Shown: positions 996-18,999, counted from the stretch's first letter. The stretch is 64,000 nt of DNA from an uncultured virus (IMG/VR IMGVR_UViG_3300030104_007230) (IMGVR_UViG_3300030104_007230:1-64000); one strand, 5' to 3'. The notes: generated by a model not told the origin, from the sequence alone. Numbers and translations are program-made.

Positions 996-1010
996 TTTAA
1001 TTAAAAAGAA

Positions 1011-1208: not shown

Positions 1209-1563
1209 TAGAGTCCTCCTTTAATGTCTCTACACATTCACTATGACATTCCTTATCATCAGTAGTGCAAGAGCTAATACAATCAAAATACTCATCAACT
1301 GGGTCGTCATCATCCCAAGAATCAGCAGTAAAAAGCGTATTAGCTTCTAATTCTGCATGGTTTTTAAGATGCATACAAAAAGTAATAAATAAATCAAATT
1401 CTCCAGGATTTTTTAATTCTTTTTGATTTATTTCATAGAGTTTCCAACCTCTACCATGAGTTTTAAATACACAATCAGAACAATCTCCCATGTAACGTAG
1501 CATTTTCATTGCACGAGCTACATAAGCACCTGGTTTATAAGTAGGAGTAAAAGTGTGTTTCAT
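1201..1563 (-). CDS. Hypothetical protein with a C-terminal four-Cys helical hairpin
   Basis: C-terminus DPVDEYFDCISSCTTDDKECHSECVETLK resembles small picocyanobacterial Cys-rich proteins. Confidence 0.6.
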   Translation of the reverse strand: MKHTFTPTYKPGAYVARAMKMLRYMGDCSDCVFKTHGRGWKLYEINQKELKNPGEFDLFITFCMHLKNHAELEANTLFTADSWDDDDPVDEYFDCISSCTTDDKECHSECVETLKEDSNE

Positions 1564-1565
1564 AT

Positions 1566-1961
1566 TTAACTATGATATTTTTGTCCTTTAGGAAAGCCTT
1601 TTAAATAAATACTTTCATAAGGACTTAATGAATAACTGCTACAGGTATAAGTTGCAGCTTTTCTTAAAGGTTCATTTGGTTCTAAACCTGTAACGTTTCT
1701 GAAAGTTTTTTCATCTCTTCCAGCTGTACAAAAGAATCCATAATGAAATAACCATTCATCATCTAATTCAGCACTTTTTAAAGCTTCAGAACGTGTCTCC
1801 AACACTTTTGAGTGATATACATCCATATCAAAAGTAGCTGTACCTAGATGAGTAGGTTGATCTCCTGATGCAAGAGGATCTTGAAAATCTACTGGCTGAT
1901 TATATTTTATATAACGAAAGACTTGCCAGTAAGCTTTTCCTAAATGTTCATCAAATGCCAT
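1566..1961 (-). CDS. Hypothetical protein
   Basis: 131-aa ORF, first gene after an intergenic hairpin. Confidence 0.65.
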   Translation of the reverse strand: MAFDEHLGKAYWQVFRYIKYNQPVDFQDPLASGDQPTHLGTATFDMDVYHSKVLETRSEALKSAELDDEWLFHYGFFCTAGRDEKTFRNVTGLEPNEPLRKAATYTCSSYSLSPYESIYLKGFPKGQKYHS

Positions 1962-2049
1962 AAGTTTTACTAAGGGACAAATAGGACTTACATCATAGAA
2001 AGCCTACTAAGTGTTACAACCTGAACTACATAAGGGTTCCCTTTAGGTA

Positions 2050-2076
2050 TATAATAAATTTGTAGCAAAGACTACA
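2050..2076 (+). promoter_or_regulatory. Sigma70-type -10 box (TATAAT, 2050-2055) followed by a perfect NtcA site TGTA-GCAAAGAC-TACA (2061-2076) over the expected transcription start
   Basis: Exact match to the cyanobacterial NtcA consensus GTA-N8-TAC with flanking T/A; position implies repression. Confidence 0.7.
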
Positions 2077-2080
2077 GAAA

Positions 2081-2140
2081 CGTTCACTTTACTTAACAGT
2101 AAAGCGCAGGTCGATTCAAGCCAGGGAACGGGGACTTGAG
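2081..2140 (+). ncRNA. Glutamine-II (Downstream-peptide) riboswitch
   Basis: P1 CGTTC/GAACG, P2 CTTTACT/AGTAAAG then CGC, pseudoknot TTCAAG/CTTGAG; directly upstream of a YRG-motif peptide, as is typical for this class. Confidence 0.88.
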
Positions 2141-2159
2141 CATTATTTACATTAGAAAA

Positions 2160-2315
2160 ATGAGTTGTTCACTTACTTATCGTGGAGTTAAGTACTCCAA
2201 AGAAGATCTTCAAGAAGCAGTTGCAAAACATGCTACAGAATTAACGTCTTCAAAATCCCACTTGATTTATAGACGTATTAATTATCGTCCTGAAATATCT
2301 GTAACTAAAGAATAA
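2160..2315 (+). CDS. DUF4278-like small protein (51 aa)
   Basis: Hand translation MSCSLTYRGVKYSKEDLQEAVAKHATELTSSKSHLIYRRINYRPEISVTKE; LTYRGVKY motif plus degenerate second copy LIYRRINY; below the ORF-track cutoff. Confidence 0.85.
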   Translation: MSCSLTYRGVKYSKEDLQEAVAKHATELTSSKSHLIYRRINYRPEISVTKE

Positions 2316-2352
2316 AAAAATAGTTTAAAATATTTATAGAAGCTTTAAATCT

Positions 2353-2616
2353 TTGTCAGATAAAAAACCAGTCTATCAGCTGGAGCTGAGAGATTTTATG
2401 AAATATTATGATCCAGGGGATCCTTATCATAATTCAGCCATAAGTGCACTCCAAGAAGCGATGCCAGAAGAATTACTTAAAAGTGATGCCCTCTGGTTCA
2501 ACACTTGGAGTCAATCTGGCATCAGGGCTGACCCTTATTATCAGAATTCAATACCAGAGTATTTTTGGCCTTATAAAGAGAATCCATTTTCTCCTGAGCC
2601 TGAGTGTTTTTCTTAA
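2353..2616 (+). CDS. Small helical-domain protein resembling the accessory domain of cyanophage endolysins/peptidases
   Basis: LRDFMKYYD...YHNSAISALQEAMPEELL...WFNTW; loosely similar to the C-terminal part of the ORF at 52952-53695. Confidence 0.55.
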   Translation: MSDKKPVYQLELRDFMKYYDPGDPYHNSAISALQEAMPEELLKSDALWFNTWSQSGIRADPYYQNSIPEYFWPYKENPFSPEPECFS

Positions 2617-2914
2617 TGCTCAATACAAATTTATTTTCTGCTTTTATAATAGTTGAAACTGAAACATTATAAATAGCAGCCCATTCTCTTCTATCTAACA
2701 TATATTTATTTTTTTTAATCATTTCACATTGATAATTATTTAAAATAAAACTATCTTTTACTAAACCAGGATTTCCAATTTTATCAGTGTAGGTTTCTTT
2801 AGTTCTGAATTTATATTTACATTCTAAACAATGACAATATCTTTTAGTAAATTCTTTTTTATGTTCAGTACAACTTACTCTTGTTTCTTTAGAACCGCAT
2901 TTAGGACATTTCAT
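2522..2914 (-). CDS. NrdR-like N-terminal zinc ribbon plus possible HTH
   Basis: MKCPKCGSKETRV...KRYCHCLECKYKFRTKE; C-terminal REWAAIYNVSVSTI; no ATP-cone. Confidence 0.7.
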   Translation of the reverse strand: MKCPKCGSKETRVSCTEHKKEFTKRYCHCLECKYKFRTKETYTDKIGNPGLVKDSFILNNYQCEMIKKNKYMLDRREWAAIYNVSVSTIIKAENKFVLSIKKNTQAQEKMDSLYKAKNTLVLNSDNKGQP

Positions 2915-3348
2915 CTATTTGCCTCTGAATAGATGTAGTCTTCACTTGGTAGTAAATAATTCATTTCCCACCAAGGATCTTCAGGATCAAATCCATTTCT
3001 TTTTAAACAGTCATATACTATTTTGTTAACAATATTTTTTTCTTCTTTTTTCAGGTGTGAATAGATACACCATTCGGTTTTAGTTGTCATAATTTGCAAA
3101 ATAGGTTTGTTTGTAATTTTGTTTTTTTAATCCGTTTTTGATAACTAAGATTTGCTTCATATGCAAATAATGTTTGCAGAATTTTACTTGATCGTTTACA
3201 AGCTATTAGAAGTTTGTTACAATAAATTTGGTGTGCAAAGGATTTGTCTATTAAACGTTTTTAATTGATAGACAGAGTTTTCTAGGAGTTAAGGGTGGTG
3301 CCTTAGCTCTTTTTTTTACCTATATTCAAACCTGGCGGTGGACTTATT

Positions 3349-3504
3349 TTAAGGTTCCGAGACCAGTTCTTTTTTATGATATACTTCAACTTCTGATTCA
3401 CATTTTGGACAAGTTAAAAACGAAATAAAATCAAAATCATCTGACACTTCACAATTAGAATCACTACCCCAGATCAATTCAGTTTGACAGTGCCAACAAT
3501 TCAT
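3349..3504 (-). CDS. Small zinc-ribbon phage protein (51 aa)
   Basis: Hand translation MNCWHCQTELIWGSD...FLTCPKCESEVEVY. Confidence 0.7.
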   Translation of the reverse strand: MNCWHCQTELIWGSDSNCEVSDDFDFISFLTCPKCESEVEVYHKKELVSEP

Positions 3505-3512
3505 TTCTTTTT

Positions 3513-3725
3513 TTAGTCTTCATTAAAATAATAAAGCTTTTTTAAATATTCGTTATAACCAAGCATGAAACATTCATTAAAAAATTCACTTGCTGCCATA
3601 TTTTTTTTAATTAATGTGTGTGCTTTTAATTCTTTTATAAAATTATTAATTTCATTAATTTCTTTTTCATCACCAAGAGCAAGAACTATATTATAACGAG
3701 ATCTATTCATAGGTTTATTCCACAA
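3513..3725 (-). CDS. Hypothetical protein
   Basis: 70-aa ORF in the operon. Confidence 0.5.
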   Translation of the reverse strand: MWNKPMNRSRYNIVLALGDEKEINEINNFIKELKAHTLIKKNMAASEFFNECFMLGYNEYLKKLYYFNED

Positions 3726-3743
3726 CTATGTCTACTCTACTCT

Positions 3744-4001
3744 TTATTCTGTAGACATTTCTTCAAACATAAGGAATCGCTTAATTTCTGTTTCAGGAGC
3801 TGTTACTATTTTCATAATTGTTTTTAATTTTTTTTCAGCTGATAAAGCTCTAGTAGACCAGTAAGCGAATAACTGTCCTTTTCTTCCTAGCTGTTGTTCT
3901 AATGCTGTTTGAAAAATCTGAGAAGGACTAATATCAAGTCCTGAGTCTGTCCAACGATCATACAATTCGTCTGGAACACTACAACTAACTACTTTTGCCA
4001 T
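3744..4001 (-). CDS. Ribbon-helix-helix-like DNA-binding protein
   Basis: MAKVVSCSVPDELYDRW...ISPSQIFQTALEQQL; extended -10 TGCTATCTT upstream. Confidence 0.55.
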   Translation of the reverse strand: MAKVVSCSVPDELYDRWTDSGLDISPSQIFQTALEQQLGRKGQLFAYWSTRALSAEKKLKTIMKIVTAPETEIKRFLMFEEMSTE

Positions 4002-4056
4002 TATAAAGAAGTTTTATATTCAACTTAAGATAGCATGATCGACTTATGTAAGCCAT

Positions 4057-5798
4057 TCAAGTGTTTTTAATTATTCTAAAAAATTCTTCTTCTAATTTTT
4101 CAGGAGAAGTGTTTTGAACAGGATAAGGCTCACTCACAACATTTCCTTCTAATGGAAGCAATGCTCGCATGTGATTAGCATACTCTTCAGCTTCATCTAA
4201 AGTTTTAAAAAAAGGAGTATAAACCTTTGTATCTTCTTTATTGCTTATATAAAAAAAAACGCAATAACAAAGAGACGATTTCATTAAAAAATTCAAATGA
4301 TAGGAACAGGACCTGACTTGTAGAATATACCAGGATTATCTTGTACAGCAAGATCTGCTGCATGACAATCTCTTACAACCTTAACGACATCAGTATTGCC
4401 ATTTGTATTTTTTGCCAAGACAGTCCAAACTAAATTGACAGGTGATTCTTTTAAAGTATCCATTGTTCTAACCAGGTAATTAATTATGAGGTATATAGAT
4501 CTATACATATGCAAAGTAATTGGAAAATACTTTACTGATGCTGACTAGAAATTTATACGTTTAACAAGCTTAAACAAGTTAAAGAAGCCAAAGATTAAAA
4601 CTTTTTAAAGGTTTGAACTAATTTAGGAATTCTTTCAATAAGTCTGGCAAGTTGCCAAGGTTGAAGTGATTTGAAAGATTTCATCTTATAAATTTTATCA
4701 AAACTTAAAAGAATAACGAGAACTGAAAGAACATCATAGAGAGCATAAACTGAATCTTTAACAGTCTTGTATCTGAATGTAGTCTTCTTCTTTTTCTTCG
4801 TTGAATAACTTGAGAACTTTTTCTGCATTGATTTCTTTTAGAAGTTCTTTTAATTGAGTAACACCTAAATTTAGATTAATATCATCAAATATTTCATCTT
4901 CTTCAGAAAATTGCAAACTATCCATACAATCTAATTGAATGTATGCTTTCATTTCATTAACAGTTAGTTTTTCTACTAAACGTTTGCTGTAAGCCTCTAC
5001 AAGCTTATTAATTTGGATAGAAGTTAGTTCGTTAGTCATGAGTAGTTTCGAAAGATTCTAAAGTTATATCGTAGCTGTTTAAATGTGTTTCAACTTCTTC
5101 TTTATCACCATCATAGTGGTCAAATATATCTTCAAGAAGTGTTGGATAATCTGGTACATGACCTTGATGTTTATAGACATGAGAAATGTATTGCTGTTTC
5201 ATGTTATCCACAGCAAAATTAAATAATTGTTTTTGACTCATGTCATTAACACGAGATTCACACCAGTCATTCCAAAGTTTTTCAACTTTTTCAGGATTTA
5301 CTTTGTTCATTTTTTTTTAATTAAGTATTTAGAATACTATTTATTTTTCATTTAACAACATATAATTTTCTATGTTACTTCTACATGTATAACAGGTTAC
5401 ACCACTATAAGAAAAATAATGAACTTGATGAAATAAAGAACAATGAGGACATTTAACTTTTCTTCCTTTTTTATCTATTTCATTTAATTTTTCAAGTGTA
5501 TTTAACCCAATCATTTTTAATAATCAGAAGCTTCATATACATTCCAGTCTAAATTCATATCTTCAAGATAAACTTTAAATTCTTCTTCATTTTCTGGATC
5601 AATATCATCTTTGTGTGGTATTTCAACAGATACCCAACAAAGACCTGGACCATACTCTTCAGGGTGAGCTTTTCCAGGAGGATTATAAACAGCGGGAAGT
5701 GTAATTACTGCATCTTCAACAATAGCTTTTACTTCATAAGTAATTGTATCGTTGTCGAGCAAAACACTTTCAAAGGATTCGATAGATAAAATTGACAT
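4057..5798 (-). other. Run of small hypothetical early genes (4057-4296, 4293-4514, 4595-4828, 4758-5039, 5032-5310, 5517-5798 and a short CxxC ORF near 5340-5515)
   Basis: Co-oriented, abutting ORFs; some track starts are probably over-extended. Confidence 0.55.
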
Positions 5799-5858
5799 TT
5801 TAATTAAGGTTTGTGGATTTTAAAATGAGGTCATAATTAATAATCTAAGTAGAAAGAA

Positions 5859-6521
5859 GTGACACTTCGTTTAGCAGGTAGTAACTCTTTACAAAGTTCA
5901 GCATTAACTTCACCTTCAGCAGTTGAAGCTTTTGGAAGAGCTTTAGGTAGAGCTGGTGAAATTATTTATCCAATGGCTAAAAAAGGGATACAAAAAATAG
6001 TAGATACAGAATACGGACCGCTTTCTTTAACAGTTGGAGATATGGGAGGAGTCAATGAATATGTAGATGCAGTTAGAACTACTTCTAAAATGCATGATTT
6101 AGTTACTCATAATCCAAATGTTTTAAATTCTTTAGAACAATTAGGCTCTAATTTAAAAGGAATAGGAAATACAATGTTTAGTTGGCATAAATCTACTGGT
6201 TATGATCCTTTAAAAGGACCAGGTAATATAGGAATTAAAGGTACTAAACATATAAAAGAAGCACTTTCTAATGCTTTTCATAAAGAAATAATTCCTGATT
6301 TGTTACATGCTAATCCTGGATCAAGTATATGGATTAGTAATGAACCAACATCGTTAAGCCGTGCTCGAACTTATGCTTCTACAAGGCTTCCAGGAGGACG
6401 TGCAATGGGTCCTTTAGATCCTACAGGTACACAGAATGCTTTAATTTTACCTTCAGGTAGAATCGCACCCTTTGAACTTATAGGTAAAGGAGTTCCTCAT
6501 CATTTGCAAAAATTTAGTTAA
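5859..6521 (+). CDS. Hypothetical protein, lone plus-strand gene inside the minus-strand block
   Basis: 220-aa ORF with phage-like codon use; CATAAT/TAATCT -10-like boxes upstream. Confidence 0.7.
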   Translation: MTLRLAGSNSLQSSALTSPSAVEAFGRALGRAGEIIYPMAKKGIQKIVDTEYGPLSLTVGDMGGVNEYVDAVRTTSKMHDLVTHNPNVLNSLEQLGSNLKGIGNTMFSWHKSTGYDPLKGPGNIGIKGTKHIKEALSNAFHKEIIPDLLHANPGSSIWISNEPTSLSRARTYASTRLPGGRAMGPLDPTGTQNALILPSGRIAPFELIGKGVPHHLQKFS

Positions 6522-6715
6522 GACCATTTTTTTTCTATTCTATTTCTAGAATTAGATGAGAGTGTTTTCTTTAGTTTTACACGATTCTTCCAAAGTTTAG
6601 TATCAAAATGTAAATCCATTCGTTTTTTTGACCAATACAAACCAATTATCCAGAAAGTAAAAAGAATACCTTCTAAATAAGTCATTGAATGCCAAGCTTG
6701 AGTTGCTCCTTCCAT
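6518..6715 (-). CDS. Small membrane protein
   Basis: One hydrophobic helix YLEGILFTFWIIGLYW and a basic tail. Confidence 0.65.
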   Translation of the reverse strand: MEGATQAWHSMTYLEGILFTFWIIGLYWSKKRMDLHFDTKLWKNRVKLKKTLSSNSRNRIEKKWS

Positions 6716-6717
6716 AA

Positions 6718-7125
6718 TTAAGTTTCTTTTTCAACTGTAACGTAAAGTTTTTCTGGTTTTCCTTCTGGAAAAAATTGATTAAATACAGGACATAACCATA
6801 TTTGCATATCAGCCCACTCTTCCCATGCATAAGGTTTGTAATTGCAACCACCATCTTTATCTTCAACATAATGAAGAGTTATATCAGCTGGTCTAGAAAG
6901 GACTGTATTACTAAAAGTTAATTTAATTTTATTAATAGAAGATTCTTGTCCGTATTTATTTTTTAATAAACGATTAACAAGCTCAGTAGCTTCTGGCATA
7001 AGAGGTTCATCTTTTACTGAAGAGCCATCTGAAAATGTGTAATCAAAGCACCAAAGATCACCCTGTTCACCAAAAGCATGATGCTTAGGTGTACATGTAA
7101 TTGAAATCATTGTGGAAGTTTGCAT
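6718..7125 (-). CDS. DUF6717-like protein
   Basis: WCFD...VKDEP...WLCPVFNQFFPEGKPEKLYV pattern. Confidence 0.6.
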   Translation of the reverse strand: MQTSTMISITCTPKHHAFGEQGDLWCFDYTFSDGSSVKDEPLMPEATELVNRLLKNKYGQESSINKIKLTFSNTVLSRPADITLHYVEDKDGGCNYKPYAWEEWADMQIWLCPVFNQFFPEGKPEKLYVTVEKET

Positions 7126-7246
7126 AATTTAAGTGTCAGCTCCAGTTAATAGAATCCAAAGCCAAGCCAATGCTAAGACTAGCGTAAGTAATTCAAAGAC
7201 AGGTGTTTCTAATTTTCCATTGTGAATTAAATATTCCATTAATGTT

Positions 7247-7420
7247 TTATGTATTTAATATCCAGATTAATCTAATAACCATACTGGTAAAGATGATGTA
7301 GTAGAGCCACATGATCCACATACCTAATTTGTTATGATGTGAACCTCGTTTATAAGGATGTACAGCTAAATGAGGAGATCTATCCCACCCATCTACCATG
7401 TAATCTTTAGTTTTAATCAT
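7247..7420 (-). CDS. Small membrane protein (57 aa)
   Basis: Hand translation MIKTKDYMVDGWDRSPHLAVHPYKRGSHHNKLGMWIMWLYYIIF... Confidence 0.65.
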   Translation of the reverse strand: MIKTKDYMVDGWDRSPHLAVHPYKRGSHHNKLGMWIMWLYYIIFTSMVIRLIWILNT

Positions 7421-7728
7421 TAGTATTCACCTTCATCATATTTAAGAGCTTTATCAGAGAAACTTGTTAGTTCCTCAATAACAGCATCAGGATGCCAATC
7501 TTTATTAATTGCATCCTCACCAAAAGCCAGATCATAAGCTTCGATTAAAAATGTCTTTACATACTCAAAGGCTTTCAAATTTTGAAAGTAGGGATGCTCT
7601 TCCCCTTCTTCTGCTTCATCCCAGTTTTCTATATCATCATCAAAGTCTTCTCTTTCTGAGTATTCTTCAACGAAATTAAAAAACTGGTTGATTGATTCGT
7701 GGATAGTAGGTTCGTCAGGATAACTCAT
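7420..7728 (-). CDS. Acidic hypothetical protein
   Basis: 102-aa ORF; C-terminal FLIEAYDLAFGEDAINKDW motif. Confidence 0.65.
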   Translation of the reverse strand: MSYPDEPTIHESINQFFNFVEEYSEREDFDDDIENWDEAEEGEEHPYFQNLKAFEYVKTFLIEAYDLAFGEDAINKDWHPDAVIEELTSFSDKALKYDEGEY

Positions 7729-7785
7729 GATTTAGGTAGTTTGCGATTGTTGTAGAACTTAATTTGGGATTCTGCGTTTTTATGT

Positions 7786-8016
7786 TTAATCATCTGGATA
7801 GTCACCAAGAGCGCCTTCTGTCATCACATCATATCCTGCTCTCCAATTTTCTTCTGAAGTAAAATAATCAGCAGTATGTGTTTGAGCAACTACATTACCT
7901 AATGTTTCTTCAATAGGTTTTGTAACTGTTTCACATTCTTTTCCTTTAACTCCTTGCACTGATTCTTTAACGTTACCGTCTTGATCAATTTTGTAGTGGA
8001 TAGTAGTTTGTTTCAT
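7786..8016 (-). CDS. DUF2997 family protein
   Basis: IHYKIDQDGNVKESVQGVKGKECETVTKPIEETLG...TADYF. Confidence 0.8.
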   Translation of the reverse strand: MKQTTIHYKIDQDGNVKESVQGVKGKECETVTKPIEETLGNVVAQTHTADYFTSEENWRAGYDVMTEGALGDYPDD

Positions 8017-9978: not shown

Positions 9979-10672
9979 CTAAATCTACCCAATTTAGTGG
10001 ATTAACTATACACATCTCATTATCTGAAGTAATACCTTCTTTACCTGTTATTAGAATGTCATATACAACTGAGTATCTTGGGAATTTTCCAAAATAAGGT
10101 TGAACACAATGGAATAAACTTGAAGGAAAGATGATAATTTTATTAACTTCTGGTGTGTAATTAATAGTTGTAAGACTTGGATAGGGAAGTTTATCTACAT
10201 AAGGTGCTAAAGGCACATACCATAAAGGATGAGTAAGAGGAGCTGTTATTTCTAATTCTCCTCCAGAAGATTCATCAACTTGAAGATAAAATATTACACT
10301 TAAATGTGAATTAAGATGGTTATGACGTTCAACAGCCTTACTAGCGTGATCTATTTTTCTTGTATCATCGCAAGCTACAATCCAAGATTTTGAAGAAAAT
10401 AGATTGAGATTGTTATAATCAACTCCAAATACCTCTAGATAGTTCTTGCAATGATTAAATACCTCTTTGTTTAACCATTTAAATTCTGGTTTATGAGCTA
10501 TTTGATAATCACCAGTAACATCTCCTGTTACATTTGCTGCGTCTTCTAATTTATCTTCATTATTTAGATGAAAATCCACTGCATATTGCAGCATTCTTTT
10601 ACTAACATTTCTTTCTGGTTCTAATGTTTCATCATAAATAACTGTAGGAAACCAAGATTTTAGTGCCATCAA
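9971..10672 (-). CDS. Putative 2OG-Fe(II) oxygenase (TIGR02466-like)
   Basis: WFPTVIY, HNHLNSHLSVIFYL, GGEL, IIIFPSSLFHCVQPY...RYSVVYD. Confidence 0.85.
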   Translation of the reverse strand: MMALKSWFPTVIYDETLEPERNVSKRMLQYAVDFHLNNEDKLEDAANVTGDVTGDYQIAHKPEFKWLNKEVFNHCKNYLEVFGVDYNNLNLFSSKSWIVACDDTRKIDHASKAVERHNHLNSHLSVIFYLQVDESSGGELEITAPLTHPLWYVPLAPYVDKLPYPSLTTINYTPEVNKIIIFPSSLFHCVQPYFGKFPRYSVVYDILITGKEGITSDNEMCIVNPLNWVDLDE

Positions 10673-10887
10673 AGATATGCTTTAGAAATATTCGTAGCAA
10701 ATCCTATTACAGTTACACCTGCAGCAATCACTGCAGCTGCACCTATCACCCATTTTTCTACTACTTTTAAACGTTCTTTTAAATCCTCTTGTTTCTCTTC
10801 TAAACGTTCAATTTTTAATTGCATTACAGTAATTTTTGTTTCCTGTGATGCATCAAGTCCTAGTTCTGTCATGGATAACACCTCCAA
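10669..10887 (-). CDS. Coiled-coil protein with C-terminal TM helix (XhlA/holin-like architecture)
   Basis: KIERLEEKQEDLKERLKVVEKWVIGAAAVIAAGVTVIGF. Confidence 0.55.
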   Translation of the reverse strand: MEVLSMTELGLDASQETKITVMQLKIERLEEKQEDLKERLKVVEKWVIGAAAVIAAGVTVIGFATNISKAYL

Positions 10888-11793
10888 GAGGTCCTCTAAA
10901 TGTTTCGTATTCTATTTGTAGTTTACCTTCTTTATAAACACGTGCTCGTGCTGTATAACGATGGCTCATTAAGCGAGCAAAACTCTGGCAACTATGCCCA
11001 TTAACAAAGCGAAAGGACTTAACAAGTGTTGATAGAGTGCACAACCATTTTCCTTCAGAAGTTTTACAAACCTTAGGAAGCAGCATTGCTATCTTGGAAT
11101 CTAATTCTTTCTTAGATTGTTTGTAATTGTAAGAACTAGCCATTGGTTTTTGATTCGTAGTATTCAGTAAGTTTGTTTTTCCAGTATTGCCTATCAGCAT
11201 CAGTAATCCAAGGATTGTGAACTTGAATACAGGCATGTTGTAACCATTCTTCTTCTTTTCTCTGATCTTTATCTGGAGTTTTAGAAGAGTCTTTCAAATT
11301 AAAAAGATTTAGGGTGAGTAACTACATCTCCTTTTATCTCTCCGATGTCATCGATGTGAGCGTGGTCAATTTGAGCATGGTCAATAGTGACATGAAAATC
11401 TTCTAAGGAATCAGCTATCCTTGTTAGAACTTTATCAAGTTTTTGCAAAGGAACTTCTTCATTAGAACTAATAGAAGAAGCTGCTTCTCGTTGTCTCATA
11501 TAATACTTAGCTGTGTAAGGAGTAATTGAGACTATTGCATAGTATTCAAAGTCATCAGGTACACCGCTATCGTTAGTATTTAGAAAGAAACAGACTTGCC
11601 AACCGCCTGTAGCAATGTCGATAGGACGACCGTGGCGCATTAACTCACATGTGGAATGACTTTTGATGTAAAGCATTTTGCTTTCTACATCAGGACTGCC
11701 TTGTGGATTAGCTACGCATAAAAATTCGGCAGCATCCTTTAGTTGTCTTTCATCAAAGCCCCACCAAATTGTGGGTTGATAGTCTAATTTCAT
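10853..11793 (-). other. Three hypothetical genes (MASSYNYK... from ~11143; a ~53-aa TTG-start ORF at ~11136-11297; 11299-11793)
   Basis: Track ORF 10853-11236 appears over-extended through a separate short ORF (KDSSKTPDKDQRKEEEWLQHAC...). Confidence 0.5.
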
Positions 11794-12245
11794 TGTTTAA
11801 TCTCCTGTTTAAATTTTTGAAGAGCGTCTTGTAAGATCATTTTTGCTACCGTAGCTTTACTTATAGAAGGACCTGGCCCTCCTGACAAAGAAAATTTAAT
11901 ATTATTAAATACAGTGCTATGTACTTTTTCATCTACAAGATCAGTAATCTCTTCTAGTAATTTATAAAATTCATAATCTAGACGTAGATTTAACTGTCTC
12001 TTTTCAGCAGCTTTTCCACGTACAATAGTTAATTGTATTTCTTCAGAAGTTATATTAAAGTCTGAAAGTAATTTACAAATTTCAAATTTCTTTATACCAA
12101 AATGTATTGATAAATCAGTTATACTTTCACCTTCGTTGAAGCGTTCTATAATTTTCTCCATATTTATAGTACGTGTAGGTGAAGGTTTCTTCATATAATC
12201 TTTTCGAAAAGCCTTAGCCAAATGTTGTTTAGTTGAGTTTTCCAT
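11790..12245 (-). CDS. Putative transcription regulator, HTH plus ribbon-helix-helix
   Basis: IIERFNEGESITDLSIHFGIKKFEICKLL (HTH); KRQLNLRLDYEFYKLL...SKATVAKMILQDAL (RHH-like). Confidence 0.6.
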   Translation of the reverse strand: MENSTKQHLAKAFRKDYMKKPSPTRTINMEKIIERFNEGESITDLSIHFGIKKFEICKLLSDFNITSEEIQLTIVRGKAAEKRQLNLRLDYEFYKLLEEITDLVDEKVHSTVFNNIKFSLSGGPGPSISKATVAKMILQDALQKFKQEIKQ

Positions 12246-12507
12246 GATTTAGTTTATAAAGCGAAGAACTAATGATAATAATCAAGGATAAATATCCTAT
12301 TAGATCTGAATAATCCATCATTTAAAGCCAAATAATAAGAATAAGGAAAGAATTATGGAGATAGATTCCATAATTGCACGTAGTAGTAGCAAGGGAACTG
12401 AGTTTGTCATAATAATGTGCAGTCACTGAAGACTGCTGAAAATCTAATAGACTTTAAGCAACCATCAAGTACCTTTTAATACTTTGGAATCATTAAGCAA
12501 AGATAAA

Positions 12508-12538
12508 GAGCCAGAGAAGAAGATCTCCCCTGGCTTTT
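12508..12538. terminator. Hairpin AGCCAGAGA...CCCCTGGCT, possible bidirectional terminator or processing stem
   Basis: Inverted repeat directly after the stop of 12542-12796, with U-rich flanks. Confidence 0.45.
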
Positions 12539-12541
12539 AAC

Positions 12542-12796
12542 TTAAGAAGTAGCGTAGCCTTTCAGATTAATTCCAATATTATTCTGAAGCTTGTACCCTT
12601 TCTTTAATAAATTAGCAACCGACATTCTAATTACCTTTAAAGGTGCTTCTAGTCGGATGTATTTAGATGTTGCAGTAGCAGGATCGATGTTAGTCATTTC
12701 TGCAAAGCAACGATTATCATCAGAACTATCACGTCTTACTGTTACCAGAAAAGCATCGTGGTCATTCTTCTGATAGATAAAAGATTCAGTAGTCAT
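12542..12796 (-). CDS. Hypothetical early protein (start MTTESF)
   Basis: The track N-terminus MRDSPSLCT is a read-through of the repeated leader element. Confidence 0.65.
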   Translation of the reverse strand: MTTESFIYQKNDHDAFLVTVRRDSSDDNRCFAEMTNIDPATATSKYIRLEAPLKVIRMSVANLLKKGYKLQNNIGINLKGYATS

Positions 12797-12810
12797 AAGA
12801 CTAATTGTAG

Positions 12811-12878
12811 GTGTACAAAGGGAGGGTGAGTCCCTCATGGAGTTAACTCTTTCGAGAATAACTCCAAGAGAAAATCAA
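12811..12878 (-). repeat. Structured leader, family I copy 1 (long hairpin plus CTTTGTACAC box)
   Basis: TGATTTTCTC-TT-GGAGTTA-TT-CTC-GAAA-GAG-T-TAACTCC-AT-GAGGGACTCA-CCCTCC-CTTTGTACAC; box ends 14 nt before ATG. Confidence 0.85.
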
Positions 12879-12892
12879 ACATTCAGCAATAA

Positions 12893-13249
12893 TTAGGGCT
12901 TCATAGGAGTATCATCAGTCCAATGATCAATCTTGTTAATATCTAATATGAACCAAAATTGGTTCTTTAATCTATTCCAAAAAGAATAAGATTTGATAGG
13001 TTTAGAAATAGATTTCCATTGGGAAGCTCTGCCTCTGGTGGATGCATACCAGAAACCTTGCTTTTCATCAAATTTGTCTGGATTAAAACCTGCTTCTCTA
13101 GCTTCGTATGGAAGAGGTTTGTTAAACATCCAATCAAATGATGTATTAATCTCTTTATTAGCCCATTTACTGAAAGCAAGAGCTTCTTCTTTCGTTTGAA
13201 ATTTGATACGTTCTCTTTCAACGAAAGTTCCGTAAACGTAATAAGACAT
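12893..13249 (-). CDS. Hypothetical early protein (start MSYYVY)
   Basis: ATG lies 14 nt after the CTTTGTACAC box, the same spacing as copy 1. Confidence 0.65.
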   Translation of the reverse strand: MSYYVYGTFVERERIKFQTKEEALAFSKWANKEINTSFDWMFNKPLPYEAREAGFNPDKFDEKQGFWYASTRGRASQWKSISKPIKSYSFWNRLKNQFWFILDINKIDHWTDDTPMKP

Positions 13250-13263
13250 TAGATAAAATTTAA

Positions 13264-13324
13264 GTGTACAAAGGGATGGTGAGTCCCTCAGTCTGCCCCC
13301 GAAGGAGCAGAGGGAGAGAATCAA
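13264..13324 (-). repeat. Structured leader, family I copy 2
   Basis: TGATTCTCTC-CC-TCTGCTCC-TTCG-GGGGCAGA-CT-GAGGGACTCA-CCATCC-CTTTGTACAC; different upper stem with a UUCG loop. Confidence 0.85.
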
Positions 13325-13467
13325 GTTTCAGTCTTAGAGATTGTATTTTGGATACGTTTCCAAATACGCTCTTTAGCTCTTTCCATTTCCACAGCATTAA
13401 GAACACGCTTTGGCAGTAAAGACCTTAAGAAATCCTCTTCAACATCTTGAAAACTACGTTTAGTCAT
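13321..13467 (-). CDS. Small basic protein (48 aa)
   Basis: Hand translation MTKRSFQDVEEDFLRSLLPKRVLNAVEMERAKERIWKRIQNTISKTET; its TGA starts the family I stem. Confidence 0.6.
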   Translation of the reverse strand: MTKRSFQDVEEDFLRSLLPKRVLNAVEMERAKERIWKRIQNTISKTET

Positions 13468-14102
13468 TTAACTTCCACAGTTTCGATACGATGTTTCATA
13501 TCTTGTAGCCAATTAGAAACTTTAGGTGCAAGATCTGCATAAACTTTCTTGGCATCAGCTACTAAATCATTCCATTCCTTACTATGTTCATCAACACGTA
13601 GTTTCAAATCGCTTTGATAACTAAGTCGTTGATTCCCAAAGAATGGAATGACTTGTGGAACTCCTTGCTTAAGAGAAGCAATATGTTCTTCTAAGTTTGT
13701 AATTTTGGCTTCTAAAGCAGCCGTCTTTTGTGCATCCATTTCGTTTAGTTTAGTCATTAGTAATTCAGCTTTCTTCTTTCCAGAATAAGCGAAGGATAGT
13801 TCAACAGCTTGTGCTGTTAATACTTTATCCTTCTCTACTAACGCTTCACTAGCAGACTTAAATGCTTTATAAAACGATAATTTAGACCCTTTCTGATACT
13901 CAGGTAGCTTATTTAGCTCTTGAGATTCAGTAAGAGGTTTCTTCTTACTATTAAATGTCTCTTCTTTAATAGTGTCTAATTCTAATACTGGACTAGGTTC
14001 TATTAAAGATGACTTTTCAGTAGTAACAGAGGTGTCAGCCACAACTGAAGCTAAAGAAGTATGTTGTCTTCTTGCTCGCTTGGAGGATGATCTTCGTGAC
14101 AT
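13464..14102 (-). CDS. Coiled-coil hypothetical early protein
   Basis: 212-aa ORF, Arg-rich N-terminus, heptad-like central region. Confidence 0.7.
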   Translation of the reverse strand: MSRRSSSKRARRQHTSLASVVADTSVTTEKSSLIEPSPVLELDTIKEETFNSKKKPLTESQELNKLPEYQKGSKLSFYKAFKSASEALVEKDKVLTAQAVELSFAYSGKKKAELLMTKLNEMDAQKTAALEAKITNLEEHIASLKQGVPQVIPFFGNQRLSYQSDLKLRVDEHSKEWNDLVADAKKVYADLAPKVSNWLQDMKHRIETVEVK

Positions 14103-14122
14103 AAGTCAGAAGGCAAAGGACA

Positions 14123-14149
14123 TGAGCAGTTTGAAGACTTGCTCAGGTC
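14123..14149 (-). ncRNA. H-type pseudoknot module (family III copy 1)
   Basis: GAC-C-TGAGCA-A-GTC-TTCAAAC-TGCTCA: S1 GAC/GTC, S2 TGAGCA/TGCTCA. Confidence 0.7.
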
Positions 14150-14152
14150 AAA

Positions 14153-14197
14153 AGTTGAGGGAGGAATTGAACCTCCCCAAAGTCACTAGACTCAACT
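14153..14197 (-). ncRNA. tRNA-like T-loop three-way junction (family II copy B)
   Basis: AGTTGA-GTC TAGT GAC-TTT-GGGGAGG TTCAATT CCTCCC-TCAACT, 5 nt after the SSB stop codon. Confidence 0.75.
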
Positions 14198-14202
14198 CAC
14201 TG

Positions 14203-14565
14203 TTATGAAACAGCAGCAGTTTCGTTAGCTTCAGCACGTTGTGCTTTGCTAACTTCACCAAGGCGTAGAGTTGTAGGAGCATCAGTTACGATAACTTCCA
14301 TACGACTACGACGTTCACCATCTTGTGACTCCCAGGTCTTATAACGAAGCCTGAAAGTTACAGCGATTGTGTCACCTTGGTTATAACGATTAAGAATGCT
14401 GTTACCAATACCGTTATATGCAGTAAGAGGTAAAGCAGATTCTTCATCTGAACTGCCAACTGGCTTAATTCGAAACTCAGTTACAGTCAAAGAACCTTTA
14501 GGATTCTTCTGTGTAATTGGTGAGACGATAGTGCCAGTGATACCACCGAAGTTGGTAGAATTCAT
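14203..14565 (-). CDS. ssb: Single-stranded DNA-binding protein (OB fold)
   Basis: N...ITGTIVSP...VTEFRI...LTAYNGIG...QGDTIAVTFRLRYKTWESQDGERRSRMEVIV; GGAG upstream of ATG 14565; lacks the acidic DDDIPF tail. Confidence 0.85.
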   Translation of the reverse strand: MNSTNFGGITGTIVSPITQKNPKGSLTVTEFRIKPVGSSDEESALPLTAYNGIGNSILNRYNQGDTIAVTFRLRYKTWESQDGERRSRMEVIVTDAPTTLRLGEVSKAQRAEANETAAVS

Positions 14566-14581
14566 GGATAAACTCCATAAG

Positions 14582-14656
14582 GTGTACAAAGGAATAGAAA
14601 ACTATTCCAAGAACTGAAGGAGGAATTGCACCTCCTTAAAGCCTCTAGGCTCAGTC
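14582..14656 (-). ncRNA. tRNA-like T-loop junction (family II copy C, 14612-14656) plus hairpin and CTTTGTACAC box
   Basis: GACTGA-GCC TAGA GGC-TTT-AAGGAGG TGCAATT CCTCCT-TCAGTT, then GGAATAG-TTTT-CTATTCC-TTTGTACAC; compensatory changes versus copy B in all three helices. Confidence 0.75.
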
Positions 14657-14658
14657 TG

Positions 14659-15093
14659 TTAATAGCCTCGATAATCATCAAGGTTATCTACAGGATTCTC
14701 GAACTCATCTAGTTCTTCTGAATACCAAGCCATGTGATAACGTACAAAACCTACAATTTGCTCCCATGTCATATGATCCATAGGAGATTGCGGAGCTGTA
14801 CCAGATGCCAAACACATAACTTCATATGTAGTCGGATCTGCTGCTAATCCAAGGTTTCCATGTATTCCACTCTTATTGGGAGGCATGGTAACGATAGATA
14901 GCTTCAAAGGACCATATTGGTATGTCAAACGATAGCGAATACAACCACTTTCGTTACAACAAGTGAAATCCGAGGGTGTTACTTCATAAATAGGCTTAGA
15001 AGTAACAGGGATCTTTTGCATGGGCATTAGATCAAGTGGACTACTCTCAGTGAGTAGTAATGCCATGCCAGGAGATTTGATCTCCCAGCTCAT
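14659..15093 (-). CDS. Hypothetical early protein
   Basis: 144-aa ORF; its TAA begins the TAACAG that precedes family II copy C. Confidence 0.65.
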   Translation of the reverse strand: MSWEIKSPGMALLLTESSPLDLMPMQKIPVTSKPIYEVTPSDFTCCNESGCIRYRLTYQYGPLKLSIVTMPPNKSGIHGNLGLAADPTTYEVMCLASGTAPQSPMDHMTWEQIVGFVRYHMAWYSEELDEFENPVDNLDDYRGY

Positions 15094-15095
15094 GC

Positions 15096-15338
15096 TTATG
15101 ACATGGCAGATTCAGTACAAGACATCTCTTCATAGAAATCTTGCATAATCAAATCAATATCTTTTATAGATAAATGACATGCTTGTTGAATAGGTTTTGT
15201 ATCTATACAAACAGGCTCACCTCTATAATTAAATCTCCAATAAGACATAAAAGTTACACCTGGTTTGACTGGATACTCAACCCAGTCTTTAACTTTAGGT
15301 CTTGGATAAGATAAAGATTTGTAAGTAACAGTTGCCAT
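15096..15338 (-). CDS. Hypothetical early protein
   Basis: 80-aa ORF downstream of family I copy 3. Confidence 0.65.
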   Translation of the reverse strand: MATVTYKSLSYPRPKVKDWVEYPVKPGVTFMSYWRFNYRGEPVCIDTKPIQQACHLSIKDIDLIMQDFYEEMSCTESAMS

Positions 15339-15346
15339 AGTAAATA

Positions 15347-15418
15347 GTGGGCAAAGAACAAGGGAGTGAATCCCTCATGGAGCCAACTCTTTCGAGAATG
15401 ACTCCAGGAGAAAGTCAA
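15347..15418 (-). repeat. Structured leader, family I copy 3
   Basis: TGACTTTCTC-CT-GGAGTCA-TT-CTC-GAAA-GAG-T-TGGCTCC-AT-GAGGGATTCA-CTCCC...CTTTGCCCAC; the TGA is the upstream stop codon. Confidence 0.85.
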
Positions 15419-15726
15419 GAAGCTACTCCAGCTGAAGTTTCTTCTGATTTATCAGCTATAAAGTCAGGCACTACAACTACATTCTGCTTTGCAGCTTTAG
15501 CAGTTGTCTTCTTAGCACGAGGCTTTCTAGTTGACGTAGCCTTTCCAGGCTTCTTCTCATCTTCAGGTCTGATTAGATCAGCAAGTTTAATCCTGCTATT
15601 TCTAATCTGAGTTTTCACAGTGGCATGTAACTTAGATTTCTCCTCTTTATCAGATTTGATATAAGCCCATGTAGCTGCTCCAACTCCTATGCTCACAGAA
15701 GCGAGCAAAACGAAAGAAGTTTTCAT
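15415..15726 (-). CDS. First early gene: N-terminal TM helix plus Lys/Ala-rich histone-H1-like tail
   Basis: MKTSFVLLASVSIGVGAATWAY...KKPGKATSTRKPRAKKTTAKAAK. Confidence 0.7.
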   Translation of the reverse strand: MKTSFVLLASVSIGVGAATWAYIKSDKEEKSKLHATVKTQIRNSRIKLADLIRPEDEKKPGKATSTRKPRAKKTTAKAAKQNVVVVPDFIADKSEETSAGVAS

Positions 15727-15746
15727 GGTGAAAGATGTAAAGAACA

Positions 15747-15826
15747 TAAATAGTTTTAAGACATATTCAGGTCAAGACCGAGTAAAGGAATCGAACCTTC
15801 CTAGTCTTTCGACTAGCCATCTCGGT
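15747..15826 (-). ncRNA. tRNA-like T-loop junction (family II copy A, 15777-15826) followed by a pseudoknot (family III copy 2, 15747-15773)
   Basis: ACCGAG-ATGG-CTAGTC GAAA GACTAG-G-AAGG TTCGATT CCTT-TA-CTCGGT, then GAC-C-TGAATA-T-GTC-TTAAAAC-TATTTA. Confidence 0.75.
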
Positions 15827-15841
15827 TACTCATTCAGGTAC

Positions 15842-16050
15842 TTTCCAGTCGTGGACTAGAAAAATAGACGCAGGCTTATTAAGTTACCTGCTACTTATGT
15901 AAGTTATACAGAAAGATCAAAAACCTAACTATCACTAGTCTTATAGGTTTTCCACACGTTCTGCCGAACATAAGACCTTTCAAGAAAGGCGACTCATCTT
16001 CAGGCGGCCCCATCCCATCTAAGATGAGAAAGTGACGAGAAGATAGGGAC
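15842..16050 (-). ncRNA. Multi-helix structured leader or ncRNA at the start of the early transcript
   Basis: Helices CTCATCTT/AAGATGAG, GCCTTTC/GAAAGGT, GTCTTAT/ATAAGAC crossing AAAACCT/AGGTTTT, GCAGG/CCTGC, TTTCTAGTC/GACTGGAAA; no ORF in the track. Confidence 0.55.
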
Positions 16051-16462
16051 ATTTAGGGGTAAAAAAGGCATAAATACCTAGTTTTATACCAAAATGAGTC
16101 ATTATTCATTCATTTGTGATGCGTTAAAACTTTCCACGATGAAGTTTTACTAATACAAAACAAATTAAAAGAGGAATAAATCCTTTACTTAAAGACTTAT
16201 TCTCTTTAGTTTTGAACGTAGTCATAATTAAAAGAATAATTACATTAAAAAAAATAGAACTCCTTCGCTTCGCTACAGGTACGGACGTTGGATGCATACC
16301 ACCGTCCTCTTTCTTTTTTTTCTCTCAGCAACACTCTTAAAGAGTATTACTCCAGATGTAAAAACGAGATTTCACCCCAAATTGGTAGTTTTAATGGAGG
16401 TTTGGGGGTAATTAGTAGGTTGGTACAACTTAAAATTAATAAATCAAGCGTTTTATAGATAG

Positions 16463-18999
16463 ATGCCCGTATCTCCACAAGAATTTTCGCTCTGGGCGAA
16501 GATGACAGGTCGTAAATATCCTAATTCTTTACAAGAAAAGGCCGAATTAGCTCCTGAAGTACATATTTTCAACCAAAATGTGGGGAAACAAGGGGGAATA
16601 GGGGTAAATGAGGTCGAAATTCCCAATACTTTCAATTCTTCTGGCACACAAACGGTAGAAACAACTTCACCGACCATGAACGATGAAAATCCTGAAAATA
16701 AAGAGAATTTAGGTTCAAATTTAGGCTCAAAATTAGCAAAGAGTGCTTTGATCGCAGGAGGACTTGCCGCGGGGGTCGCTGCCGCACGTAATCCAGGTGT
16801 ACAAGAGGTAGTGAAGAATACATCAGAAAAAATTGGCGATTTTATATCTAAATTTACTGATCCACGTGAAATAAACATCGATACTCTAGAAGCGGCGCAA
16901 GATATAACAAATTCAGCACCTTCAGATATATGGGATCAAGCAGATGTATATTCTCAAACAAGACCGTTTGATGGGGGCTTTTCTGAGCCTAATATTGATC
17001 CTTGGGCTGGTCCTGAGACAAGATCTTCTAGATTATTAAGGGGAACAGGGATTGGAGGTGCAGGAGATAAAGCAACAGCATTACTTGCTGAAATTAGTGA
17101 AAAATACCCTGAATCTGCTACATCTGGTGAATATGTACATCCATCACGTATTTCTGGGATGCCAGGGGGCGATTATCGTGGAAGAAGAATCACTTATAGC
17201 CCTGAACAAAAAGAAGCATTTAATTTAACAAAACAAGAAGCAGATACAAGAGCAATTTTAGGTAATGAAGGGGAAATTCCTCCTGGAATGCTTACTAAAG
17301 AACAACAGGCTTATTTGAAGCTTAATGAGTTAGGTGGAGAAACATTACAAGCTGGTAAAAAAAGAGATTTAGCTAATGTCGAAGCTTCAGGGGAGTCTGG
17401 GGTATCAGGGGGTTCTGGCGGAACTGGACAGAAAAATTTAAGTGGTCAAGCAGATGACTTCATTGGAAAAATGCAAGGACCAATGCCTCCTGAAATAAGT
17501 CTTAAAGAAGCTAATTCAATGCAAGAAGATAGACATAGCATGGAAAGAGAATATCGTGATAAATTTATTTTAGAAAATAGAGAAGCTATCGAGAGAGGTG
17601 ATATAGATCCTTATTCAGAACAACATTTCTTTAATCAACCTAGTTTGAGTGATATTTATCCAAATCCTTGGGCAGAAGATCATGAAGACATAATAAGAGA
17701 TGCAGTAAGGTATGAAGGAGCAACAGGATATAAAGATAGAGATCGAGTTAGTGGCTATAAATATGCAGATATTCAAGATAAGTTAAATGAACTAAGTGGA
17801 AAAGTTGATCCTGCTAGACAAGAAATACTTGACATTGTTTCAACAGGAGAATTTGCAAGAGGAAATAGAGAGGCTATGGCAAGAAATGTATGGGAAGCAA
17901 ATCTAAAAGAAAAAAGTCTAAGTGAAAAAGCTGATGCAGTAGTCGATGCAATAGTTGAATCACATTCAGATTTTGGAAATGTAACTTATAACGAACCTGA
18001 AGCCATAGAATCAGCTAAAGCACATTATGGCGAAAATCCTGTAAATACGGCACTTATCAGTCCAAATACACCTGGAAATAGTGTTGTAACGATTGATTCA
18101 ACAAATGATCCAACAACATCAACAGGACAACATCAAATCAAGTTAGATGCAGATNNNNNNNNNNAAGAGCAGAACTTGGTGCAAAAAGAGCACAAATAGC
18201 TGAAAATACTGGTTTATCAAATCCAGCTGTAGATCGTTTCTTGGGACAATACTTCCCATCTATGACAGAAACATATAGTGATGTAGATATTGCATCTGGA
18301 AGAACTCCTGAAAGAACATTTTCTAATGTTGGACCTGAAGCTGAAATAACAAAAGCTGCTAGTGGCGGAGCTATTCGAGGACGTTCAAGAGTACAGGATT
18401 ATGAAGTTAGTCAAGATCGTACAAGAGATATTTCACCAGAACCAGAAGAACTAAGAGGTACTCCTTTAGCAGAACAAAGACCTGACATTATTGGTGGAAA
18501 ATTAGCGCTTGGTGGTGTTCCTGGAGATTTAGATACAGATCAGATGTCAAAACAAGAAGTTATTCAATCAATTATTAATCCTTCAACTGTAGATCTTAGA
18601 GATAAAACTCCTATTGCAGGAACTGGAGTTTATGGGAGAGAGAAAGGATATGTTTCAGGTGCGATGAAAGCTTCAGGAGATTATTCTGATGCCGCAATGA
18701 GAAAGCCAACTGATCTTTCTCCAGCAGAAACAAGGTATGACAGCTTTATTAAAGATCCTTATGGAGGACTTTCTGATAAAGCATTAGAAACACATATACA
18801 AAGTGCTACACCTGATTCACCTTCACAGAAAGGATTAGAGCGTGAAGCCTATAAACGAAGTGGTACTGGTATTCCTATTTCTCAAAAAATGAGAGAAATT
18901 CATACAACAGGAGATCCTTTAACAAGAAGCGAACGTGCACAAACTTTTCTTGATGAACTAGATCCAACAGGAGAACTTCGTAAAAGAAATTTAGGTTAA
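16463..18999 (+). CDS. Large acidic low-complexity virion/internal protein; one gene split by the assembly gap
   Basis: After the N-run the frame ...RAELGAKRAQIAENTGLSNPAVDRFLGQY is open straight into track ORF 18241-18999. Confidence 0.7.
18155..18164. other. Assembly gap (10 N)
   Basis: nnnnnnnnnn in the sequence. Confidence 1.

Follow-up and report, generated by a model that had tools for sequence, protein, structure and literature searches.

A covarying two-state RNA element between early genes of picocyanobacterial phages and its possible role in mRNA processing

The DNA analyzed here (the window) comprised the first 64 kb of an 86,161-bp uncultured virus record in IMG/VR (IMGVR_UViG_3300030104_007230), which was rated complete. 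Three hairpins located between genes on the minus strand of the window, at 12877–12818, 13323–13271, and 15417–15360, most likely represent a single uncatalogued element with two RNA states, which serves to punctuate early polycistronic mRNA in marine picocyanobacterial phages. Each copy could form a long imperfect hairpin (P1) or, alternatively, pair the 3′ arm of that hairpin with a hexamer just downstream, giving a second, smaller hairpin (P2). Both helices are selected in the gene-sense RNA, as the covariation described below indicates. The element may well be a signal for processing by a host RNase III-type enzyme, resembling the early sites of phage T7, with the cut handing the 3′ arm over from P1 to P2; this reading was given about an even chance.

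P1 of copy 1 (12827..12877, minus strand, as are all features of the three copies) had 20 pairs, with U.C and U.U mismatches, a 2x1 internal loop and a GAAA tetraloop; that of copy 2 (13280..13323) had 17 pairs and a UUCG tetraloop, and that of copy 3 (15367..15417) had 20 pairs, a C.U mismatch and a GAAA tetraloop. Minimum free energies (MFE; all structure energies in this text are predictions) were −24.5, −24.6, and −24.4 kcal/mol, respectively, with z-scores of −2.92, −3.62, and −2.34 against dinucleotide shuffles, so that the three intergenic hairpins named in a preliminary description of this DNA were recovered. From the base upward, P1 consisted of UGA, a pyrimidine-pyrimidine (Y.Y) mismatch, a six-pair block U(U/C)UCUC/GAGGGA, a second mismatch, a variable upper stem and a tetraloop. 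The lower stem agreed with the form reported earlier, UGA-Y-U(U/C)UCUC/GAGGGA-Y-UCA, including a mismatch that flips from U.C in copies 1 and 2 to C.U in copy 3. The upper stem of copy 2 was likewise found to be replaced, being entirely different around its UUCG loop, and those of copies 1 and 3 were related, sharing the GAAA loop and differing by compensatory C-G to U-A changes.

On the 3′ side of each hairpin came AC, 0–2 bases, UCCCUU, and then 21 nt to an AUG, which opened an 84-codon gene after copy 1 (AUG at 12794..12796), a 118-codon gene after copy 2 (13247..13249) and an 80-codon gene after copy 3 (15336..15338). The competing fold, first described as GGGA/UCCC, was present in all three copies and proved longer than claimed, with six pairs including one G.U between GAGGGA and UCCCUU. 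It occupied 12818..12836 in copy 1 (GAGGGA 12836–12831 with UCCCUU 12823–12818, where a 5-pair register GAGGG/CCCUC is possible too), 13271..13289 in copy 2 (13289–13284 with 13276–13271) and 15360..15376 in copy 3 (15376–15371 with 15365–15360). The 12-mer core TGAGGGAYTCAC occurred three times in the window, always on the minus strand, against 0.01 occurrences expected, and three were reached in none of 100 shuffles.

Outside the window, a search pattern made of the core, a spacer and UCCCUU matched 53 IMG/VR loci, nearly all of which had, in their flanks, a stop codon, GAYUCUCUC, and an upper stem that differed between loci. Eight of the 51 distinct pattern hits were omitted from the first alignment (A1): three chance matches without a hairpin (L007, L021, and L039), one locus with only the 3′ half at its pattern site (L024), and four loci (L005, L013, L030, and L031) later shown to be copies with long upper-stem inserts, in which the lower stem and P2 were kept and the upper stem was replaced by branched inserts of 86–123 nt. 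Two further loci with a long upper stem (L032 and L052) were also omitted from alignment A2. A covariance model (R1) derived from 41 sequences detected the element on the sense strand of each of the 48 viral records searched, with four copies inside 1.1 kb of one contig (G033). True copies scored 24–77 bits, all but three of them at least 33 bits. With filters off, R1 reported exactly three sites in the window (52.7, 69.3, and 45.9 bits for copies 1–3) and no further one in the 22 kb of the source genome beyond it. The element is absent from Rfam, and the hairpin sites remained empty in an Rfam search even at E values up to 10.

Covariation in P1 was assessed on a MAFFT alignment of the 41 sequences, in which 94.5% of cells were paired and seven pairs showed two-sided change. 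The covariation score was 0.382, against 0.123 in shuffles, and was matched by none of 500; when the partner was slid by one column, pairing fell to 44–60%. A model-fitted alignment of 72 hits (68 distinct rows), which leans toward structure, gave compensatory change in 14 of 17 pairs. One U.G pair was preserved in 63 of 68 rows and antisense R1 hits did not exceed 22.5 bits, indicating that the structure belongs to the gene-sense RNA and not to the DNA. Arms in the family were mostly 18–19 nt long, with 16–17 pairs, and among 64 distinct hairpins 29 had UNCG and 4 had GNRA tetraloops. Both mismatches were kept. In 67 of 68 rows the lower one did not pair, even though both of its sides vary (U.U in 19, C.C in 17, U.C in 15, A.C in 12, and C.U in 4), and the upper one was C.U or U.U in 65 of 68, its 3′ member being an invariant U.

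The family was first gathered with a pattern that fixed the 3′ arm, and the evidence for covariation in the lower stem and in P2 therefore comes from the 20-odd divergent copies found by R1, which may stem from a small number of events, as cells count sequences rather than events. In these divergent copies the 5′ arm, the 3′ arm and the downstream hexamer shifted jointly. The arms UCUCUC and GAGGGA were accompanied by UCCCUU in 35 copies, and UCUUUC and GAAGGA by UCCUUC or CCCUUC in 12. Four further combinations were seen in one copy each: UCACUC, GAGUGA, and UCGCUC; UUACUC, GAGUGA, and UCACUC; UUAAUC, GAUUGA, and UCAAUC; and GCUCUC, GAGGGU, and ACCCUC. MAFFT did not register P2 across differing loop lengths (45 of 48 distinct segments, with L086:1210, L082:1824, and L015:1061 omitted), and P2 was counted instead on gap-free subsets of 17 segments with 6-nt loops and 17 with 7-nt loops, the other 14 entering only the tally of arms. 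In these subsets 97.1% of cells were paired, with two-sided change at three of six and two of six pairs; the score was matched by none of 500 shuffles, and slid controls were 47–66% paired. A swap test with G.U allowed was weak, the hexamers of non-consensus elements forming 5.61 pairs with their own 3′ arm and 5.48 with the consensus arm, because G.U lets a pyrimidine strand pair with most purine strands. The loop between the P2 strands was conserved only where it forms part of P1, so that the two pairings account for the whole conserved block. Judged by this covariation, the competing GAGGGA/UCCCUU hairpin is real and under selection.

The two states were close in predicted energy. In the window copies P1 was favored over the P2 state by 1.8–4.1 kcal/mol, and over 69 elements the median difference was 2.0 kcal/mol, with a range from −2.4 to +8.4.

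The source of the window is, from its sequence, an 86-kb S-EIV1-like cyanophage with psbA; its large terminase had 64% identity to the counterpart in Synechococcus phage S-EIV1, and its host was assigned provisionally from phage relatives. The other contigs bearing the element were nearest to P-SSP7, P-SSP3, and P-SSP2, with genomes of about 45 kb implied by CheckV sizes, and one of them (G011) was a T7-like cyanopodovirus. In all seven T7-like genomes checked, copies had the orientation of the phage RNA polymerase gene and lay 0.9–4.3 kb upstream of it. Cyanophage 9515-10a, a cultured phage, carried one copy (48.6 bits) at 5567–5620 on the minus strand of NC_016657, and P-SSP10 and P-SSP6 were matched by blastn. 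Next to the element of 9515-10a (L093), an unannotated 25-codon open reading frame (ORF) at 5616–5693, minus strand, had a GGAGG box, a UUG start and a hydrophobic predicted peptide, and terminated at the UGA in the base of that element.

No relative of the flanking genes was found among the podovirus loci: tblastn of 12 window proteins against loci L004–L093 gave nothing at an E value of 1e-3 or better. The element is therefore common to the two lineages without its neighbors, and its transfer along with its genes was rejected. A blastn search of window positions 12500–16000 against the phage collection gave no match. A search of 596 Gb of bacterial and archaeal genomes for the core pattern returned 38 matches in unrelated taxa, none cyanobacterial and the best with 28.8 bits by R1. 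By this measure, occurrences in cell genomes are no more than expected by chance, and a copy in a host genome was rejected.

In the window, the genes between about 9.5 and 16.4 kb were on the minus strand, and this is also the gene-sense strand for the hairpins. A search for RNA runs covering window positions 10500–17000 gave none. This array begins near 16.4 kb, opposite the structural genes, and all three hairpins lay within its first ~4 kb, ahead of a canonical terminator-like hairpin with a U run at 12509..12535 (minus strand), just past the gene that follows copy 1. That terminator is likely the end of an early transcription unit holding all three copies. The hairpins thus look to be placed in the first transcription unit, of about 4 kb, among small genes of unknown function, and the transcript carrying them would be polycistronic.

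The element was anchored to upstream stop codons. An upstream ORF of at least 30 codons ended nearby in 61 of 71 distinct elements (the other 10 had no such ORF, and four of these were clipped by locus ends), and in 52 of the 61 its stop codon overlapped the base of P1 (33 UGA, 18 UAG, and 1 UAA), where frame alone predicts one in three. The ORF ended 2–26 nt before the stem in the remaining nine, copy 1 of the window among them. The earlier statement that the UGA of the stem is the upstream stop in copies 2 and 3 was correct: the UGA of ORF 13321..13467 (13323–13321) formed the first three bases of P1 in copy 2, and that of ORF 15415..15747 (15417–15415) formed the base of P1 in copy 3. Upstream of copy 1, the ORF stopped at a UAA (12893..12895, minus strand) 15 nt ahead of the stem. 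The UGA in the stem of copy 1 (12877–12875) is in frame with this UAA (12895–12893), six codons on, and this ORF looks as if its end formerly lay in the stem, as it does in copies 2 and 3, before it was shortened.

In the processing reading favored here, the nascent RNA would form a P1 of about 17–20 bp with the upstream stop codon in its base and two fixed mismatches, a size and layout that would suit it as a substrate of bacterial RNase III. Host RNase III, or another double-strand-specific nuclease, would cut the 3′ strand at or near the invariant U before GAGGGA. The upstream mRNA would then retain the tetraloop-capped upper stem as a protective hairpin at its 3′ end, and the freed GAGGGA would pair with UCCCUU, so that the new 5′ end would carry P2, some 20 nt ahead of the start codon. 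For RNA cut just 5′ of GAGGGA, the predicted product opened directly with P2 in all three window copies. A six-frame search found no RNase III domain in the source phage, so any RNase III-type enzyme must come from the host. In the cited portion of PMC10989914, cyanobacteria are credited with one to three RNase III genes plus Mini-III, and the Mini-III of B. subtilis with a preference for ACC^U; this tetranucleotide was not conserved in the stem of the element. RNase III of E. coli acts on substrates that typically span two helical turns, with a minimal substrate of 34 nt, and internal loops can limit the enzyme to one bond, leaving a protective 3′ hairpin (Pertzev and Nicholson, PMC1540722, in the passages cited).

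The T7 RNase III signals (R0.3, R0.5, R1, R1.1, and R1.3) are similar in being imperfect hairpins (about 20 pairs) whose stem is conserved and whose tops vary, in lying between cistrons on the sense strand, upstream of or around the phage RNA polymerase gene, and in having an internal loop or mismatch in the stem. A host enzyme would be required in both systems, and two of the T7 sites, as folded here, held the upstream UGA in their base. The positions folded are those that we take to be the T7 sites, the T7 record having no annotation of them; they were reportedly given by Dunn and Studier in 1983. The preliminary term RNase III-like was apt for size and layout, for the location between early cistrons and for the presence of a stop codon at the foot of the stem. 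Cleavage has been proven in T7, and for the cyanophage element it is presumed. The two also differ in structure, as the internal loop is larger in T7, where the cyanophage element has single Y.Y mismatches, and as no second, covarying partner of the 3′ arm such as P2 was seen in the T7 folds.

Several points weigh against processing as the function. Many of the hairpins have 16–17 pairs, short of two full helical turns. There was no sequence relationship to T7: over T7 positions 400–8000 the best known site reached 6.6 bits by the R1 model (E 1.7), so the likeness is one of architecture and not of homology. Moreover, the likeness was judged by the rules of E. coli RNase III, from which the cyanobacterial enzymes may differ. 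The element was absent from the first 10 kb of P-SSP7 and from the whole of S-EIV1, and is thus not essential to either lineage. Finally, simple processing requires neither a stop codon in the stem base nor folds of nearly equal energy, two features that fit a ribosome-operated switch at least as well.

Such a switch, in which a terminating ribosome would melt the lower stem and pass GAGGGA to UCCCUU, thereby gating cleavage, decay or re-initiation, was considered clearly less probable than processing, if the strongest of the other readings. It accounts best for the stop-codon anchoring and the fine energy balance, and the three-way covariation maintains both of the folds between which it would operate. 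The preliminary description had argued that a terminating ribosome would favor the alternative fold, and this was borne out by prediction: with the nucleotides through stop+6 to stop+9 forced to be unpaired, the MFE fold changed to the upper stem plus P2 in all three copies. Of the switch proposed there, two real and near-isoenergetic states and the flip on forced opening stand, whereas the start codon downstream was, by prediction, occluded in neither state. Control of downstream initiation by occlusion found no support, since the predicted accessibility of the start region over 69 elements, with start codons assigned by a simple rule, was 0.549 with P1 formed and 0.559 with P2 formed, and differed by more than 0.15 in only 4 of them. 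In most copies the start codon lay 17–27 nt past P2, and no U run followed P2, so that no output of a switch was visible. The nine elements whose ORF ends ahead of the stem also argue against it, and no switch is known for the T7 sites R0.5 and R1, which likewise have a stop codon in their base. Attenuators and riboswitch platforms offer a parallel, in that GAGGGA has two alternative, near-isoenergetic partners between which a ribosome at a defined codon could choose; unlike in those systems, neither helix forms a terminator or masks a ribosome-binding site, and both a ligand pocket and the logic of a leader peptide are missing.

The switch and processing can be combined. Terminating ribosomes might park the 3′ arm in P2 and so block the cut until translation stops, upon which P1 would close and a host nuclease would separate the messages. 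Together with the tRNA-like minihelices of the other spacers (see below), the early operon would be a fully punctuated transcript, whose marks would pass between unrelated lineages of phages that share their hosts. This ribosome-timed scheme is speculative and was rated somewhat below the switch by itself; if true, the operon would resemble mitochondrial transcripts, which are cut at tRNA-like and hairpin marks.

5′-terminal stem-loops stabilize mRNA, as in the E. coli ompA leader, and P2 would similarly provide the processed downstream mRNA with a short hairpin at its very 5′ end, differing in that it could form only once its strand is freed from P1; its protective effect is putative. The whole element could act as a passive stabilizer or insulator that involves no specific endonuclease, the tetraloop hairpin blocking 3′ exonucleases once the RNA is cut or decays upstream of the leader, P2 blocking RNase E or RNase J where these depend on the 5′ end, and the cistrons being kept from misfolding together. 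We regard this as rather doubtful. In its favor, UNCG and GNRA loops are enriched (33 of 64), the stability of the upper stems is very high, a resemblance in sequence to a proven RNase III site was not found, and according to the cited portion of PMC10989914 both RNase E and RNase J are present in cyanobacteria and RNase E is induced during P-SSP7 infection. A plain barrier, however, needs neither the conserved mismatches (67 and 65 of 68 rows) nor the invariant U at the junction, and has no use for a lower stem that shares a strand with P2. P2 would, in addition, stand at a 5′ end only after a cut directly before it.

Short conserved intergenic stem-loops that are repeated among small early genes, beside unrelated genes, are also known from T4-type phages as promoter-early stem-loops (PeSLs), described in the cited part of PMC4122927 as composite motifs of a terminator and an early promoter that mediate gene exchange. 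By analogy, the element could be a cassette acting at the level of DNA or transcription, a terminator or pause hairpin with a promoter that doubles as a recombination hot spot shuffling early genes, as its presence in two unrelated lineages without shared flanking genes and the four copies within 1.1 kb of G033 would allow. This is improbable. Unlike PeSLs, the hairpins were followed by no U run, and a promoter scan of 12400–16600 gave five promoter-like sites, none of which, as a sigma-70-like pair of hexamers, overlapped a copy. The preserved G.U pair and the strand-specific scores indicate RNA and not duplex DNA, and the 3′ arm is free to vary provided that both pairings hold, which is not the behavior of a promoter box; the conservation of the element, unlike that of a PeSL, is explained by two RNA pairings. 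T7-like phages, furthermore, transcribe their early region from a few promoters at the left end.

The least probable of these readings, and a very unlikely one, is an operator at which an RNA-binding protein of phage or host reads the lower stem and its mismatches: lower-stem sequence and mismatch positions are strongly conserved across lineages, but the GAAGGA, GAGUGA, and GAUUGA variants alter the sequence and keep the pairing, and in two lineages without shared flanking genes a common phage-encoded binder is not evident. Other identities were rejected. A sigma-70 promoter would have a GGGACU-like −35 box 19 nt from the best −10 (UACAAU, copy 1), a site that the scan did not find, and the start that it implies would, in relatives, be located within the Shine-Dalgarno sequence. 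No intrinsic terminator was called at the three sites, where P1 is followed by AC-N-UCCCUU and no U run; canonical terminators were present elsewhere in the source genome. GAGGGA as a mimic of the Shine-Dalgarno sequence, with a downstream strand that we take to resemble the 16S rRNA tail, was dismissed on the GAGUGA and GAUUGA variants, which keep both pairings and are not Shine-Dalgarno-like. A pyrimidine-purine-pyrimidine triple helix does not fit a downstream strand that is antiparallel to the purine strand and covaries as in Watson-Crick pairing. Nor does the element appear to stimulate read-through or frameshifting, with an in-frame UGA ten codons on in copy 2 and upper stems of varying length; the upper stem starts 8 nt past the stop codon.

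In the freely accessible full-text literature that was searched, neither a description of the element in cyanophages nor a mapping of its RNA ends was found. The phages that infect Prochlorococcus and marine Synechococcus rank among the most abundant marine viruses, and a compact, strongly covarying RNA signal is common here to T7-like podoviruses and an unrelated 86-kb lineage. Its three-way covariation provides a clear natural case of one RNA strand kept compatible with two partners. The copy in a cultured pair, cyanophage 9515-10a on Prochlorococcus MIT9515, makes the proposal directly testable. The element could help in understanding how RNase III-type sites are designed outside E. coli, and possibly serve as a cistron insulator in cyanobacterial engineering.

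The remaining three spacers of the operon that holds the hairpins were filled by tRNA-like minihelices, at 14124–14196, 14591–14656, and 15747–15835 (minus strand). Each lay directly 3′ of a UAA stop and had an acceptor-like stem, a small hairpin and a T-arm, without a D or anticodon arm; the T-arm loops were UUCAAUU, UGCAAUU, or UUCGAUU. ARAGORN called none of the three and no tRNA anywhere in the window, and one minihelix reached 25.2 bits on the Rfam tRNA-Sec model, below its gathering score of 47. They may be punctuation marks for RNase P or RNase Z. Beyond each of them, about 20 nt ahead of the start, stood a small hairpin, as in the spacers with P2, which fits a shared need for a 5′ hairpin on each message; given these spacers too, every processed downstream message would begin with a hairpin.

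The T-arm pattern recurred in at least 120 viral loci (L134–L253), and ARAGORN called a tRNA in 28 of the 120 listed. Among these loci were two large non-tRNA families with a stop codon, a short acceptor-like stem and a T-arm, in which the stem covaried (e.g., GGUAAG/CUUACC against GGCA(A)G/CCUGCC). A second small hairpin with the conserved 11-nt loop AGUCUUNAAAC was found at 14124–14146 and 15747–15769 (minus strand) and in a large family within L134–L253; the stems around the AGUCUUNAAAC loop covaried as UGAGCA/UGCUCA, UGAAUA/UAUUUA and, in relatives, GCCA/UGGU. An exact 11-mer, CCUUUGUACAC, occurred on the minus strand at 12811–12821, 13264–13274, and 14582–14592, following the small hairpin of copies 1 and 2 and of one tRNA-like spacer, and in relatives of the element UGUUUAC, UGUUCAC, or UGUACAC stood a few bases past UCCCUU. 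CCUUUGUACAC may be a conserved leader or ribosome standby motif.

Among the other genes of the source virus were those for a family A DNA polymerase, a primase-polymerase and 2OG-Fe(II) oxygenases, and no RNA polymerase was detected among the 49 ORFs scanned. The psbA gene was located outside the window, at 65315–66400 of the genome (G000; 1315–2400 on the minus strand of L132), with a Photo_RC match at E 1.5e-86. The only Rfam family that reached its gathering score in the window was the Glutamine-II riboswitch, whose aptamer at 2078–2140 on the plus strand scored 68 bits against a gathering score of 33 and overlapped the start of a 59-codon plus-strand ORF (2136–2315) amid minus-strand genes.

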